Assembly: GCA_027923505.1 (NCBI GenBank)
Contig: BROI01000022.1
Span: 496,001-560,000, forward strand
Length of the DNA stretch: 64,000 bases
Origin: Mayamaea pseudoterrestris
Lineage: Eukaryota
Direction of reading: 5' to 3'
Position numbers and translations under genes: made by a program
Part shown: positions 2,411-47,950 of the stretch, in pieces
Layout: each line of letters starts with the position of its first letter
Position numbering within the stretch: the stretch's first letter is position 1
Notes under the pieces: model-generated
What the model was told of the DNA's origin: nothing
The model's input: only the letters and a program-made list of their open reading frames with translations
The model's database searches: none

Positions 2411-4027
2411 TCCCATCTGAGTTGCCACGCAGCGAGTTCCATCGGCAATGATCAAGGTACGGTTGCAAGCCCTCAAGTTCACCATCGCATCAGCGCAATG
2501 GACTCCGTGCGTTCCGCTGCCCGAGTCCAGCATGTACTTGTTGTCGTAAGCTTCGTCGCGATCCGAGACTGCAAAAACCAAGTGCTTCTCCTCTTTGTCG
2601 ACCTTCGATCCATTGGTAAGTGAATTGTTGTTATCGATGCTCTCGTTCGGGCGTAACAAGACGGGCATCTCACTCGAATCATCGCTATCATATCCACTCA
2701 GATTGCGAGGATTCAAGCTCGGAATTGATGATCCGCTTTCAGTGCTTTCGTCGTCCCAATTCGTGTCGCACGGGACCGAATCGCCATCTTCGCTATCCTT
2801 GAAGAAAGACCAGTCATCATCGTCTTCCTCAATCTCCATGGTCGAGCGCTGGTTGCAAATCCATTCGAGCGCGCCCATTGGCTCTCCATACGGGGCTGAC
2901 GTCAGATGCACCTCCGTCGGCAGCTCACACGATTCCTCTGACGTCACTGGCACCTCCATCGACTGCTCCTCCATGACGGCCATCAACCAAGGATCCTCGT
3001 CTTCCGAGTCTTCCGCATTAGAGCGACTGCCTTGACTGTTGTTGCTCTTCTTCTTCGGGCACTTGCTAGCGTAATGACCCTTCTCACCGCAAACGAAACA
3101 GGTAACTGTCTTCTTCTTGTCGCCGTTTCCTTTGCCGCCGCCGCCGCCATTGTTCTTCGCGTTGCCGCCCTTCTCACCCTTGTCATCCTTCTTCTTGTCA
3201 GGACAATCGCGCTTGACATGACCAAACTTGTTACACTTGAAGCAGCGTTTCAATGGTGGCTTGCCAGGCCAAGTAGCTAAAGCCAAGTCGTCGCCTTTCT
3301 TGCCTCCCTTGCCGCCTGGGTTTCCGCTCACTTTCCACTCCTCGACAATCAACTCCTTAAAGTCCTTCAAGGTAAACGTTTCCTTCATAACGTTGCCGCG
3401 ATGAGCTGAGCAGAAAGGCGCCCAAGCTGTCGAGCGCTGGAGACACTGGAAGATGGTCGACTTCTTCTGGTTTTCGTCGTTCATGTACTTGGGGTCAACG
3501 TCTCCCAAGCGAGTGTTGGCAAGCTCAAGATCCGCCAACCAATCATGCGCCGTTGTGTAATTCCCCGGGACACAGTCAGAATACTCCTTCTGGAGCTGCG
3601 GGAGATCCGATATCATGTTGCCAGCCTCGAACTCTTCCTTCAGGAGCTCCCACATGGCAAACGCGGTAGTCTGCGCGCTAACTCGACGCATCAGGGCATG
3701 ATTCTCAATGCTATTGACGATAGCAGCTTGAGCTTTGGCGTTCATTTCATGGAGACGCAACTCTTGGGTAGTCGCTTCGCGAGTGGTTTTCGTCCCAGTG
3801 CTTCTCCCGTTCGAATCCTTCTCCTCCTCCTCAATTTCCATCATGAGGTACTCATCAGGACTCAACAACTTGTGCTTCGCCAACTTAGACAAGTCCTTGT
3901 TCACCGCACCGAGCGCTCCCAACCCTTCAATCAACGCGAGGATCTGCGGCTTCCAGTCCTTCCACGTCTCCTTCAACCCGTTCCACGGGACTTTGCGTAG
4001 GTTCTTGGCTTCCATGGTGCTTGGCAT
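2396..4027 (-). CDS. Copia Gag (two zinc knuckles) and aspartic protease, ending at a frameshift
   Basis: 543-aa ORF with gag-like N-terminus (TAFAMWELLKEEF), two CCHC knuckles and a DSG protease motif. Confidence 0.9.
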   Translation of the reverse strand: MPSTMEAKNLRKVPWNGLKETWKDWKPQILALIEGLGALGAVNKDLSKLAKHKLLSPDEYLMMEIEEEEKDSNGRSTGTKTTREATTQELRLHEMNAKAQAAIVNSIENHALMRRVSAQTTAFAMWELLKEEFEAGNMISDLPQLQKEYSDCVPGNYTTAHDWLADLELANTRLGDVDPKYMNDENQKKSTIFQCLQRSTAWAPFCSAHRGNVMKETFTLKDFKELIVEEWKVSGNPGGKGGKKGDDLALATWPGKPPLKRCFKCNKFGHVKRDCPDKKKDDKGEKGGNAKNNGGGGGKGNGDKKKTVTCFVCGEKGHYASKCPKKKSNNSQGSRSNAEDSEDEDPWLMAVMEEQSMEVPVTSEESCELPTEVHLTSAPYGEPMGALEWICNQRSTMEIEEDDDDWSFFKDSEDGDSVPCDTNWDDESTESGSSIPSLNPRNLSGYDSDDSSEMPVLLRPNESIDNNNSLTNGSKVDKEEKHLVFAVSDRDEAYDNKYMLDSGSGTHGVHCADAMVNLRACNRTLIIADGTRCVATQMGDLPL

Positions 4028-6479: not shown

Positions 6480-7669
6480 CTATGTTACAGTTGCTGCTCG
6501 AGCCAGCTTGGCTCGCTCGTACCGCTGCTGCCCCTCGTAGTAGGCTTGCATGTCATGTTCGGTTTCCAATCGCAACGATGGAACTGCCATGGGAAGCTTA
6601 CTGTCATTTAGACTGACAAAGGAAAAAATACCCTTGGCAACGACTGGATTGTTATTCTCACTGCTGCTGTCAAGTTCGTTTGTCATTGACTCCAAGCTTG
6701 TCACCGTCGCCACCACTTGCACCTCCATACTCTTGGCGGAGCAAAAGGTTACCTTGGAACTGACATTGACAATGGTGCCAAGCTTGACGTAGTTGGAAAA
6801 CTCAATGTGAGGAATGGCCACCGTGACAACACTGGCCGACCGCGCGTGGCGGACCGCACTGGCGCCGGCGCAATTGTCCATCTCCTTCATGACGAAACCA
6901 GCCAGTGCCACGTTGGCGGCAATCACATTGGAGGGAAGCACGACGCGGTGAATGTGTTGCGTCGAGTCGGATGGTGTGCGAGTAGTGTTGTCGTTGCTGT
7001 TGTTGCTGCTGGTGCTGCTAATGCTGCTGCTCGATGATAATTCTGGTGGCTTGTGATTGGCGCGACACGTTCTGCAGAAACAAGTGTCGGTCATGTGTTT
7101 GAAGCACTCGTCGTTCGCTTCTGCGTCATTTGCCTCCAGCTTGGCTTGCTTGCGAGCCTGATAGGACTGCAGTCCTGATTGGTAGTGCTTCCACTCCGTG
7201 GTGCCAGTGGCTGGAACCATCAAGGATGGGACGTTAATGACCTTGACATTCGTTTCCCCTTGCTGCAAGGCAACGTACCAAAGATCGCCCGTGTTTGTGA
7301 CGCACTGCTTAATTTCACCGCCCGTAAAATCTTCGGCTGTCACAGTCACCTTGACTAGCATGGAATGCTGCGACGTGTATGCGATTGTGGCTGACACCGA
7401 GGCAAGCTGTCCAACGTGGAGCGGCTTCCAGAAACGCATATGTTCCAATCGCACCAAGACGGAGTAAAGTTTAGTAGATGTGTCGTTGTTACCATTTTTA
7501 TTGCCATTTTCATGGACAAATCGCGTCGAAGCCACCACTCCAGCCTGCTCCATGAGTTGCAGGATGCATCCTCCATGAACGGTTCCTCCGGGATTGGCGT
7601 CTTCCGGAAGCATCAATCGCACAAGTACGGGAGTAGCTGATGTAGACATGGACATACTTGAAATCATGC
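6480..7669 (-). CDS. Double hotdog-fold acyl-CoA thioesterase (ACOT7-like); start uncertain
   Basis: LMLPEDANPGGTVHGGCILQLME in the first hotdog domain, and a second domain (VVLPSNV..GFVMKEMDN..SMEVQV..FSFVSL). Confidence 0.85.
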
Positions 7670-43034: not shown

Positions 43035-44324
43035 TCAGATTGTACAGTGGCTCATGGACAATTGTCGTTCGTTCGCTCCTCCGACAATCGCAGTGACTCT
43101 TGCCTCGAGCTTGCAGAGGCTTTTGGTAATATCAACAAAGTCGGGCATGTTGGGATCCGGCTTGGTAAGATGTTGCGACTTGTGTAACAACTTCTGCAGC
43201 ATGTTACTCTGAGATGACGACTCATCTTGGCTACCCACTGTCTCAACAGGTCCGGCTTGACGATCTACTCCGCAAAGTTTGGCAAGCGCATCATGCAGCA
43301 TATGTCCTGCTACAAGATACTTGCGCAGACAACGATCGCGTCCGGTCGCAACATCGAGGTAGGCATCGCCAAGGAGCATGTGCGTCTCGGCGACCAAACA
43401 GAGTAATGGCTCTCGGCAATCCTTTTACGCACAAATCGTCAATGCATCCGTCAAGACTTTGATTGCCTCGTCGTGATTGCCCCTGACACGCAGCGTATAC
43501 GCGGCATGGTGATACATGCCAAACAGTCGCTTTCGAAGCAAGATTTCCTGCGAACGAGAAAGGTCCGACCGCTCCAGCATGCCAGACACAATGATGCGGG
43601 CACATATCAAATAATCGTAAGCGATGGCCATGTCATACAGGACGCCGCCGTTGTTTGTGATCCCACTGTTCGTTTACACAGCAAGGACCAGTGCCGTTCC
43701 ATATAGGTCGTAGAGCGGGGCCAATGACTCGTGATCTCCGCTAGGTTGCTGTTCGAGCTTGTGGATAATGGCGTTTTTAGTTTTGCTTTTTGCTTCTTCG
43801 AAATCACCTGAGTTGATCAGGTTCAATATATCCTTGTAATCAGCAGAATCGAAGACATCAAAGTACGTTGCAAGTGGCGTCACCGAGGACAACGACGAGG
43901 GCGGTAAGACCGTGCCAGGTGCATCCTCATTAGCTTGAACCTTTTCCGCATTCGTGACTTTCAACTTTTTCAACCTTAACGTAGAAACAGCGTCCAAGTC
44001 CGCTTCATTCGACGTCGCCTTCGCCAACTCCAACGACGACATAGTGTGCTTTCGAGAGATGGGCACTGTTGAGGCCTCAGCCCCATCCTTTGACACAAAG
44101 GGTCCAGTACCAGCTCGTTCATCCAAATTAATACCGGCTCCACTCCTCGAATCCTCCATACCATCCGACATCGACGCAACTCCAGCTTCAGCTTCGATTT
44201 CGTTTACGACCAAGGCTGACAACGAAACAATCAACTCCTCCTCCTCCTCCGACTTGCCTCCTCCTTCATTCAAAACAGAGTCGGCTTCCGAGCTCCCGCT
44301 TTCGTTGCCCTTGGTCTCAGCCAT
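43035..44324 (-). pseudogene. NASP/Sim3-like (SHNi-)TPR protein with two in-frame TAA stops (43674-43676 and 43425-43427)
   Basis: ORFs 43674..44387, 43425..43631 and 43035..43397 share one frame. Motifs HESLAPLYDLYGTAL, DMAIAYDYLICARII and VAETHMLLGDAY. Confidence 0.65.
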
Positions 44325-44899
44325 GATGGTGCTGAATGGGGAAGCCCAGAAAGCACAGCGTGAGAATGAAGCTGCATAACGCGCCACTTAAAAAATACTA
44401 GACGGTGACCATCAACCTCGCTGCTCGATTTAGAGTGCATGACCTTTAAGCATACCTCGTCATGATATTTTCTTGCTGCTGCTTGCTGCTTGCTGTATCA
44501 ATCACGCGTTATCGCCACTACAATAATGCTCGTCTCTCCTTTGTCACTCGTGAAGAGCTGTAACGTTCCGTTGCCGACGAACCGACGAAACTCCGCCGTT
44601 TCGTCGCAGCGACCGGTAGTGCTCCGGCGAAACCGGTGCGAGGTTCGGCAACAAATGATTTGTATGCTAGAATGTGAACTCGGTTAACAGTAAAACAGAT
44701 GATCTTTTCTATGAAATTTGATGCGAAAACAACTTGATCATCATCAAGCATCATGGCGGTCAGCCGGACGCCGTCGAATTTGAATCCAAAACCAGTGCGA
44801 CTACCTCGTCACATAACCGCTGCGCCATCATGACGTTTCAGGCTCGAGTGTCACGTTTTCGCACCACACATCAACTTTCATTCCAATCTATCATCCACC

Positions 44900-47495
44900 A
44901 TGGCGATCCTGCGTCTATTGACAACACTATCGCTTCTATCGAGCAGCCATGCCTTTTATGTCGATACAATAACCCAAAGACATGCTTTGAAGTATGTCAA
45001 GAAAGCTAACGACAGCATCCACGCCTTTCGAATCAATAATATAGCAACTCGACAATTCACCTCCACTATACTCTTTGGCAAAAAGGCTGCCCGCAAGGGC
45101 AGCGGCGGCGGAAAGTCGTCCTACAGTAGCAGCAAACAAGTGCCACAAGAAAAGCAATCGGTCAAGGATCAGCGCTTTGACGCGGCGACGCGACAGTTCA
45201 TGTTCACCATGCTTGGCTTGACCAAGATTTTGCCCGACAAGTCCAAGACGCTGCTCAAAGACATTAATCTGTCGTTCTATCCCGGTGCCAAGATTGGAGT
45301 CGTTGGCTTGAATGGATCAGGTGCGTGATGGAACTGTGGTGCGAAGAGACCTATTTGCTGTTCAGCGTTTAAAACTCACCATAATCTCGCCTCACATACA
45401 GGCAAGAGTACATTGTTGAAAATCATGGCTGGCATTGACACGGAATTCGACGGCACGGCCCGTCCACTACCGGGCGCCAGCATTGGCTACTTGGCGCAGG
45501 AACCAGTCTTGGAGTTTGAAACGGTGCAGGAGTGCGTCGACCAAGCGGTGCAGTCGCAGCAAGCAATATTGGACGAATTCAACTCACTCAGCATGAAACT
45601 GGCTGATCCAAACTTGACGACGGACGAAACGAACAAGATTATGAGTCAAACGGATCTATTGACGAACCAGATTGAGGCTGGCAATCTGTGGGATCTGGAT
45701 CGGGTGGTGGAGCGCGCCATGGACGCGCTCCGCGTGCCGGCCGGTTCGGCCAAGGTTGCCAATCTTTCCGGAGGCGAGCGTCGACGAGTAGCGCTCTGTC
45801 GACTACTGCTGCAGAATCATGACATGCTACTACTTGATGAACCAACGAACCATTTGGATTTTACGTATCTATTGTTGTGATTGGTTGTGTTGTTGGAGTG
45901 TTGTGCAAATGTTGAGAGGAGTGCCGAGCGATCTTGCGTGGCGTATTGTTTGATCGTCGTTCGTTGATTCGTCACAACATTATGCGTGACGTGTACATGA
46001 TTTCCTACTCATGCCTTTCATTGTCTTCTTAATTACAGGGTACGATATTACAAATCCGTCTTCTTTTCATAAAAGCCATGATAGCCCTTGTCTCACTAAT
46101 CTTTCTTTCTCTGCCGCAGCGAGTCCATTGCATGGCTGCAAATCTTTTTACAGAACTTCAAGGGCACTGTTGTTTGCATTACTCACGACCGTTACTTTTT
46201 GGAGGAGGTGGCTCAATGGATATTGGAGCTGGATCGAGGAGCTGGTATTCCGTTCGAAGGCAACTACTCGGCGTGGCTGGAGGCAAAGAATAAGCGTCTA
46301 CAGGAGGAAAAGAAGAAGGAGACTGCGGCTTCAAAAGCCGTTCAAGCTGAGCTGGAGTGGATCCGGAGCAACCCCAAGGCGAGGGGTAACAAGAGCAAGG
46401 CTCGTTTGAATCGCTACGATGACTTGTTGGCGGCGGCTGCACCAAATGAAATGCGAAATGCTGGACAAATATACATTCCGCCAGGCCCAAGATTGGGGAG
46501 TGTCGTCATTGAGGTGGGGAATCTGCGCAAGTCGTTTGGCGAGCGCCTGTTGATTGACGACCTCAGCTTTAGCTTGCCACCCGCTGGCATTGTAGGAGTG
46601 ATTGGCCCGAACGGCGCGTAAGTTGACATGACGAAGGTTTCAGTAGCTGCGCAACAACTGTTTGTTCCCCGTTTTGACTCATTATTTTTTGATGGTGTTG
46701 ATACATTGCAGTGGTAAATCGACGTTGATCAAGATGCTACTCGGCCAAGAGCAACCAGATGAAGGCAAGGTTACGATTGGAGAGACTGTTCGCCTCGTGT
46801 CCGTCGGGCAGGAGCGCATGGAAAGTCTCAACCCGGAAAAGACTGTGTTTGAGGAGATTTCAGACAATCTAGATGAGATTGAACTTGGCACGCAGACTGT
46901 CATGTCTCGAGCATACCTTTCATGGTTTGGTTTCAAGGGCGGCTCGCAGCAATCGCTCGTTGGCAACCTGTCTGGTGGAGAGCGTAATCGAGTACAGCTC
47001 GCCAAGGTTCTCAAGGCTGGTGGCAACGTCATAGTACTAGATGAGCCCAGCAACGACCTAGATGTACGTATATCAAATGCGTTTGAATGGTGATAAGTTT
47101 GTTGAGCTGTAGTGTTTGTGGAAGCTGCTTCATTATGTCATTTAACACCCCTTTCGTTATATTCCACAGGGTACGTTATCTATCTCTGCTAAAAAGGCTA
47201 TATTATAACAGTTACTAAAGTGTCGACTCACACTTTCTTCTTATCGCTCCTTACCACAGTCGAAGTACTGCGCAGTTTGGAGGAGGGCTTGCTGAACTTT
47301 GCCGGATGCGCCTTTGTGGTATCACACGACCGCTTCATGCTGGATCGCATTGCCACACACATTTTGGCGTGCGAAGGAGACAGCAAGTGGTTTTGGTTTC
47401 CCGGCAACTATGCCGAGTACGAGCAGAATCGTTTGGAGCGATTGGGCGAAACAAGCATCAAGAGAATTACGTACGCGCCATTGATAAATGTTTAG
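44900..47495 (+). CDS. ettA: Plastid-targeted ABC-F translation factor EttA/ChvD; exons 44900-45320, 45402-~45860, [46039], 46120-46617, 46712-47063, [47170] and 47260-47495
   Basis: [70 protein letters not shown] and [13 protein letters not shown]. Presequence [19 protein letters not shown]. Confidence 0.95.
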
Positions 47496-47950
47496 GATCT
47501 TTTAAGTAGTTATTATTATTGTTTAACTGTAAGCTTCATTTGCAGCCTTCATGTCGTTCGATTGATGCGCTCGCGCTTGCACCATCAAGGCTTTCCCGAG
47601 CAAGGTAGGCGTGACTCGCATGAAAAGGCCACATGTAGCCGTGAAGCCATGCTTTTGATAAAGTATCCAGTAGGCAAGCGAACACACGACCGGTATTGTT
47701 TGCGTGCATTTGTATTTCAAAGCTTACTCTTTAGCTCGAATGCGAACGTTCTTTTCGCCGCCGTTCACACCAATGAAAACTCTCATTTGACGTCTGGTCA
47801 GACACTTTTCGGTTCTTGTCCTCGTCCCTCGATCGAACACGACACACAAAAATTGTGTCCCAAGTTTTAGCTGTCAACTACCGCACCACATAAATACCAT
47901 AATCACTACACAGATGAAGCTCTTTCCAACACTTTCGCTGATATGCCGCC

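Follow-up and report, generated by a model that had tools for sequence, protein, structure and literature searches.

How is the reading frame kept in a gene with two ABC cassettes, both of which are interrupted at the D-loop by a gap across which direct joining of the flanking canonical splice sites shifts the frame? The question is raised by an EttA-type ABCF gene of the diatom Mayamaea pseudoterrestris, a split nuclear gene with six introns at positions 44900-47495 on the plus strand of a 64,000-nucleotide (nt) stretch of contig BROI01000022.1 (assembly GCA_027923505.1, positions 496,001 to 560,000 of the forward strand), here called the window. Most likely, this gene contains two single-G exons, G46039 and G47170, one in each gap. 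Very few cases of one-base exons have been documented; what is new here is a contig-supported stramenopile case, in which a single gene has two such exons, placed at equivalent positions of its ABC cassettes.

A one-base exon in the second cassette had been proposed in an earlier, sequence-only reading of the window, and on re-reading all of the letters and coordinates given there around G47170 proved right. The cassette 2 exon ends with GAC CTA GAT at 47063 and is followed by GTACGT (47064-47069). Within the gap lies TTCCACAG|G|GTACGT (47162-47176), in which TTCCACAG ends at 47169, the lone G is at 47170 and GTACGT occupies 47171-47176; a final CCACAG ends at 47259, and TC GAA GTA follows from 47260. 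As had been argued, joining 47063 directly to 47260 is out of frame, the first stop being met at residue 589 of 655, and inclusion of G47170 restores the EttA pattern, with a translation identical to that of the Fistulifera and Seminavis orthologues (Asp-Val-Glu). The two introns so defined are of normal size (106 and 89 nt), each with a branch-like motif, again as described. That reading had passed over a second AG|G|GT, namely TTAATTACAG|G|GTACGA at 46030-46045, with the G at 46039, in the equivalent place of cassette 1. Here, the exon reads ..CAT TTG GAT TTT ACG.., the first GT comes only at 45865 and the next exon, C GAG TCC (ESIAWL), starts at 46120. The features of the gene, with the two proposed exons in place, are as follows.

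44900-47495, plus strand: coding region from ATG to TAG, EttA/ChvD-type ABCF; translation of the annotated exons gives exactly the public protein P0001.
44900-45320, plus strand: exon 1, comprising the presequence and the beginning of cassette 1 as far as the Walker A Gly codon; joint 45317>45399 (cut +3), GT..AG, in runs X2 and X4.
45321-45401, plus strand: intron i1, 81 nt, GTGCGT..ACAG.
45402-45860, plus strand: exon 2, ending ..CAT TTG GAT T (D-loop Asp and first base of the Cys codon); X2 contig record 10.
45861-46038, plus strand: intron 1A, 178 nt, TTACGTAT..TTACAG, with a non-canonical 5' end (T at +1); CTCAT 27 nt from the 3' end, pyrimidines at 13 of the last 20 bases.
46039, plus strand: proposed one-base exon G, middle base of the Cys codon T-G-C; TTAATTACAG|G|GTACGA, joint 45860>46119.
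46040-46119, plus strand: intron 1B, 80 nt, GTACGATA..CCGCAG; CTCAC and CTAAT 24 and 20 nt from the 3' end.
46120-46617, plus strand: exon C GAG TCC.. (ESIAWL), with the linker, to Walker A of cassette 2.
46618-46711, plus strand: intron i3, 94 nt, GTAAGT..TTGCAG; joint 46617>46712, GT..AG, in X2 and X4.
46712-47063, plus strand: cassette 2 exon, ending ..GAC CTA GAT (D-loop Asp).
47064-47169, plus strand: intron 2A, 106 nt, GTACGTAT..CCACAG; TTAAC 24 nt from the 3' end.
47170, plus strand: proposed one-base exon G, first base of the Val codon G-TC; TTCCACAG|G|GTACGT, joint 47063>47259 in X4 and X2, orthologues reading DLD-V-E.
47171-47259, plus strand: intron 2B, 89 nt, GTACGTTA..CCACAG; CTCAC 29 nt from the 3' end; the related protein P0121 reads DLD, then G-T-S...
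47260-47495, plus strand: last exon, TC GAA GTA .. TAG.

Transcript evidence was provided by assembled contigs from four coded runs (X1-X4) of one study, the kind of run not being on record and rare forms being dropped on assembly; stretches lacking contig cover (e.g., 45912-46113 in X1-X3) were not counted as evidence. The following joints were observed.

45317>45399 (cut +3): ends GT..AG, in X2 and X4; intron i1.
46617>46712: ends GT..AG, in X2 and X4; intron i3.
47063>47259: ends GT..CA, in X4 (159 letters on the shorter side) and X2 (27 letters); 195 nt skipped, with an ambiguity of 2 letters.
45860>46119: ends TT..CA, in X2 (64 letters on the shorter side); 258 nt skipped, with no ambiguity.

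The last of these comes from X2 contig record 10, which lies on 45473-45860 and then resumes at 46119. Joints 47063>47259 and 45860>46119 thus yield mature RNA reading GAT-G-TCGAA (Asp-Val-Glu) and GAT-T-G-C-GAG (Asp-Cys-Glu), respectively, the former being exactly the junction that had been predicted for cassette 2, as read by contigs of both X4 and X2. Accordingly, each mature joint keeps exactly one G beyond direct joining of the flanking canonical sites, which alone shifts the frame. We infer that the retained base is, in each case, the internal G.

Not all contigs are joined at both gaps. X4 record 27 (702 letters, 45536-46238; 17 other letters and 9 gaps) runs through intron 1A, G46039 and intron 1B with no joint, while X4 joins i1, i3 and the cassette 2 gap. 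It may be that particular alleles or samples retain this pair, of which the first intron starts with TT. The same contigs bear on the possibility that the joined contigs represent an intron-less DNA copy of the gene, be it a retrogene or an intron-less allele. Such a copy would be compatible with the unrecorded kind of run and with the allelic differences from the window that the joined contigs carry, but not readily with X4 contigs that are joined at i1, i3 and the cassette 2 gap yet unjoined at the cassette 1 gap. Moreover, the allele 45805G/45817C is found both joined (X2) and unjoined (X4 record 27), which fits RNA processing rather than an intron-less copy, and a single M. pseudoterrestris protein appears at 100% identity among the best 120 matches. 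An origin of the joined contigs in such a copy is, as such, scarcely credible.

The mature junctions differ from those of the public gene model. P0001, the NCBI entry 'hypothetical protein MPSEU_000924000 [Mayamaea pseudoterrestris]' (100% match over a query of 166 amino acids (aa)), is built without both Gs, in line with the earlier remark that annotation pipelines miss 1-nt exons. Joining 44900-45320, 45402-45864, 46120-46617, 46712-47067 and 47260-47495 reproduces P0001 letter for letter. Since this exon set ends at 45864 and 47067, the annotators used the weak donors GTATCT (45865) and GTATAT (47068), the latter indeed being present in the cassette 2 gap and giving the annotated DLDVLEVL. 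P0001, with 657 aa as compared to the 655 aa obtained with both one-base exons, reads HLD-FT-ESIAWL and DLD-VL-EVLRSL, with one residue extra after each D-loop. When spacing was counted in 240 proteins returned by similarity searches, an extra residue after HLD was found in one of the 109 proteins with the cassette 1 motif and an extra residue after DLD in one of the 172 with the cassette 2 motif, in both instances P0001 only; P0121, as seen in the cassette 2 count, runs into unrelated sequence.

It could be argued that P0001 describes the main transcript, with single GT..AG introns starting at 45865 and 47068, and that the joints seen in the contigs are minor forms. Both donors are canonical and preserve the frame, P0001 is identical to the model, and the gene models were, according to the genome paper, built with funannotate from RNA-seq reads. 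Against this, contigs retain major rather than rare forms, and joints at 45864 or 47067 appear in no contig of any of the four runs, though other joints are present; DLDVLEVL, named in the sequence-only reading as the outcome that would speak against a one-base exon, is thus what the public annotation contains and yet is absent from the joined contigs. Given, in addition, that the extra residues are unique among the 109 and 172 relatives, it is very improbable that the public model represents the main transcript. Rather, the model looks wrong at both gaps, with one spurious residue in each ATPase half. An RNA-seq-based pipeline would in that event have given a wrong protein, and an error at the D-loop would mislead structure models and alignments of ABCF proteins.

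The start of intron 1A was considered separately. The first letters of intron 1A are TTACGTAT, as compared to GTACGTAT in its counterpart 2A, and the contig shows precise removal at T|TT; the removal of intron 1A despite its TT start is hence observed and unexplained. The T at 45861 is found in the window and can be deduced also for the unspliced contigs X1 record 4 and X3 record 19, which show only 2 differences, at 45805 and 45817. Spliced introns very rarely have a T (U) at +1. In plants, minor non-canonical splice combinations together account for ~0.09% of annotated sites, those one letter away from GT-AG being the commonest, and the main text of the survey reporting these values makes no mention of 'TT-AG' (plant splice-site survey). 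More conventional solutions for cassette 1, examined by hand, were rejected: no GT or GC that could serve as first donor exists between 45857 and 45864, donor 45865 in combination with G46039 shifts the frame, and use of AG|T|GT at 45897 would still leave a first donor other than GT. The Cys that follows HLD in the mature product is natural at this position, with four proteins besides this one (P0005, P0080, P0101 and P0116) reading HLDC(E/D)S. With its TT start and its precise removal, intron 1A offers a natural test case for 5' splice-site requirements.

Do the gaps then comprise one intron or two? If each is taken as a single intron, its ends would be TT..CA in the first cassette and, in the second, GT..CA, TA..AG or AC..GT. 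In the cassette 2 gap, canonical ends result only from the two-intron reading, which gains further strength from the second AG|G|GT in the corresponding place of cassette 1. Overall, seven of eight splice sites are canonical once G47170 and G46039 are counted as exons, the exception being the TT 5' end of intron 1A. The four sub-introns measure 80-178 nt, as compared to 81 nt for i1 and 94 nt for i3, and each ends in a pyrimidine-rich tail and has its own YTNAY motif, 18-30 nt before the 3' end. Both gaps contain CAG|G|GTACG, in which the single base stands between an AG acceptor and a GT donor. AG-N-GTAYG occurs eight times in the window, both strands considered, with two occurrences in the gaps where 0.028 are expected, and CAGGGTACG is found exactly twice in the 64 kb, at 46036 and 47167, one per D-loop gap (0.27 expected; two reached in 3 of 100 shuffles). 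Only three sites in the window combine AG-N-GTAYG with a pyrimidine-rich upstream 20-mer, namely, those of both gaps and one at 6726 (minus strand). The last of these was rejected as a micro-exon, as it lies inside an uninterrupted open reading frame (ORF).

Other modes of excision were also considered. Both gaps fold into RNA structures less stable than those of shuffled sequences (z +1.3 and +1.5) and no Rfam match to the gaps was obtained at E values up to 1, such that nothing points to a non-spliceosomal intron. Excision of the IRE1 type and of the tRNA-endonuclease type was dropped, with no corresponding motifs being found at the observed joints. U12-type introns have the 5' end consensus RTATCCTT; here, cleavage takes place before TTACGT and GTACGT and, because the nearby GTATCT and ATATCA lie away from the observed joints, a U12-type or AT-AC intron was rejected.

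The alternative to two introns per gap is one non-canonical intron per gap (45861-46118, TT..CA; 47064-47258, GT..CA or the shifted TA..AG), with the internal AG|G|GT going unused and the kept G being the last base of the 3' CAG or else G47064. The aligner places the joints exactly there, and a TT 5' end is required in cassette 1 anyway. Such introns would, however, require non-canonical ends, two for cassette 1 and one for cassette 2, including a ..CA|G 3' end for which no mechanism is known, and a non-spliceosomal route finds support neither in an end-pairing fold nor in an RNA family. Nor would single introns explain why CAGGGTACG, with just two sites in the window, has both in precisely these gaps, or why each half of a gap comes with its own branch-like motif and pyrimidine tract.

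Several observations nonetheless weigh against two introns per gap, and some of these would suit a single non-canonical intron equally well. The TT start of intron 1A demands a non-canonical event in any model, and the argument from parsimony is weakened as a result. The bare AG-N-GT is common by chance, occurring 392 times in 128 kb, with five instances seen in the 455 nt of the gaps where 1.4 are expected. For the one-nt exon originally proposed, the mature junction was found as predicted. The retained G is not distinguishable from neighboring Gs: in cassette 2, with 2 letters of aligner ambiguity, it could be that at 47064, 47170 or 47259, and in cassette 1 that at 46039 or 46119. Half-spliced intermediates, with a single intron of the pair removed, were seen in none of the four runs, the contigs of which lack rare forms. 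X4 record 27, in keeping intron 1A, the G and intron 1B together, and with these the entire cassette 1 gap, behaves as also expected of a single excision unit. The data are contigs instead of reads, from runs of a kind not on record, and the strong cassette 2 joint stems from an allele differing from the window at 17 of 303 nt, the intron interior of which is not visible. Finally, the arrangement is not conserved, with the relative P0005 having no cassette 1 intron, P0121 having a single cassette 2 intron that is equally compatible with a donor after G47064, and other diatom loci presenting introns at other positions. On balance, two introns per gap, separated by a one-base exon, offer what is quite probably the best overall explanation, while a single non-canonical intron per gap is unlikely.

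Splicing of the gene would accordingly be envisaged as follows, were the one-base exons real. At the D-loop of each ABC cassette, two spliceosomal introns of ordinary size would be parted by one G (G46039 or G47170), which would double as +1 of the upstream 3' splice site (CAG|G) and -1 of the downstream 5' splice site (G|GTACG), and be optimal for both. As the flanking introns are short, and a branch-like motif and a pyrimidine tract are present in every one of them, intron definition probably applies and, because acceptor and donor overlap, the introns of a pair would most likely be removed one after the other. The predicted product of 655 aa would have the normal family spacing, HLD-C-ES and DLD-V-EV. 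Retention of intron 1A or 2A introduces a stop after 7 or 10 codons, respectively, and skipping of G46039 or G47170 causes a frameshift, with a stop at residue 390 or 589. It is possible that these exons serve as a regulatory switch, as the sequence-only reading had suggested for G47170; the X4 contig in which the cassette 1 pair is retained is only a hint in this direction.

Conservation of AG-N-GT in orthologues, a check put forward together with the original proposal though not a strictly defining feature of such exons, was not found, with P0005, P0121, the loci L004 and L005 and many fragments differing. P0005 (90% identical, from a 20-kb contig) is unbroken from its start through HLDCESIAWL to GPNGA, indicating a relative that lacks both i1 and the cassette 1 pair. 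P0121 (86% identical) ends ..NDLD-GTSSRRTIVAHH, after which it is non-homologous; this agrees with an exon ending GAT G and GTAC.. next to it, and so with one intron, at the 2B position. In P0220 (56% identical), the final NDLDVRHLF is in keeping with an intron present only at the 2A position. In L005, the break is TTG|GAT, and in L004 it is G|AT in cassette 1, with an intron after DE in cassette 2. Inspection of break regions covered 2900-3000 and 3960-4040 of L004, 2900-3000 of L005 and proteins P0121-P0330. ORF fragments stop after DEPT-K, N-R, NH-V, HL-G, HLD-V, HLDA-V, HLDAE-R and others, and the fragments and two loci together reveal at least 10 distinct break patterns per cassette around Walker B and the D-loop of diatom EttA; as the fragments were picked by length, these patterns do not speak to a hotspot relative to the rest of the gene. 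No AG-N-GT pair was seen in L001, L004, L005 or the other loci inspected, 12 of the 80 kept in a metagenome scan having been inspected, most of the others among these being bacterial ettA.

Since close relatives lack the pairs, these are young or lineage-specific, and their absence from such relatives provides a recent, datable example of how a one-base exon originates. Introners, intron families derived from transposons, come in many similar copies that have terminal repeats or target-site duplications. The six introns show no similarity to one another (all z below 2), no similar copy of any was found in the rest of the 64-kb window, the only region covered, and a tandem-duplication origin of the pairs was rejected, as nothing rose above shuffles. 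The simplest account would be two separate gains one base apart, with a new intron arising beside an existing splice site each time. In a more elaborate scenario, splice-site-guided gain would have placed both new introns exactly one base ahead of a 5' splice site already present (GAT^G|GTACGT and GAT T^G|GTACGA), the TT-started intron 1A would be removable only via its neighbor through coupled, ordered splicing, and the cassette 1 pair would be the slow step, with retention, as in the X4 contig, tuning EttA output. This combined scenario is speculative and rather doubtful.

The assignment of the gene to the EttA group is based on full-length matches of P0001 above the curated cut-offs of two NCBIfam models, TIGR03719 (812.7 bits; cut-off 806.75) and NF008775 (812.5 bits; cut-off 599). 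The N-terminus resembles a signal peptide and contains ..SSSHAF.., where orthologues show ..SAFAP..; we take the former to be akin to the ASAFAP-type motif of diatom plastid proteins. As judged from these residues, the EttA product is probably plastid-targeted. Within the presequence, a second allele in the runs has an in-frame CAG put in behind 45123 (X1 and X2); this allele (44879-47700) is strongly unlike the window, differing at 17 of 303 letters in exon 46761-47063. In addition, an X3 contig of low depth (4.4; side 30) skips 172 bases of the presequence exon, at 44908-45081, with CT..CA ends; this skip is unexplained and may be an assembly artefact. Upstream, a long ORF at 43500-44330 (minus strand) ends near the EttA promoter region, the two genes being divergent neighbors.

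As compared to the EttA/ChvD subfamily models (TIGR03719 and NF008775), the M. pseudoterrestris protein matches over the full length and has, with the one-base exons counted in, an identical D-loop spacing. Unlike the proteins described by those models, it is encoded by a eukaryotic nuclear gene with six introns and includes an N-terminal presequence. In terms of splicing, the gaps resemble recursive AG|GT ratchet points (cited in Guo and Liu, 2015, PMC4674806) in that a 3' site directly precedes a 5' site inside the gap and removal would be stepwise. Recursive sites, however, keep no base and subdivide very long introns, whereas here one base is kept and the introns span 80-178 nt. Because one G parts AG from GT and is kept, these are not recursive zero-length sites; nor, with the relevant motifs lying away from the joints, are they U12-type introns.

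A parallel in plants is Arabidopsis APC11, in which a single-nucleotide exon, the base A, was proven by substitution in reporter constructs and for which intron definition and stepwise removal were argued (Guo and Liu, 2015, PMC4674806). APC11 likewise has a constitutive one-base exon between two GT..AG introns that was mis-annotated, and the same mechanism is proposed here. The two differ in that APC11 is a plant gene with one such exon, an A, proven by substitution, whereas the present exons are proposed from sequence and contigs. A plant micro-exon database includes exons of 1-15 nt, and no one-base exon in diatoms was found among the matches listed in the literature searched.

A further parallel is the one-nt exon of the Fusarium cytochrome P450 gene CYP621A, termed by its authors the second example of a one-base exon, with an AGGGT core, conservation in 20-24 genes and Sequence Read Archive (SRA) reads across the joint (Nelson and Syed, 2026, PMC12940212). 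The M. pseudoterrestris exons share the AGGGT core, the requirement of the G for both the frame and an invariant motif, omission from public models, transcript support across the joint and an intron-less relative that serves as a length marker. By contrast with CYP621A, conserved in 20-24 orthologues, close relatives here lack the pair, two such exons occur in one gene and one flanking intron starts with TT. As such, the EttA gene of M. pseudoterrestris is a further case of the known one-base exons, set apart by two exons in one gene, by its stramenopile host and by a flanking intron with T at +1.

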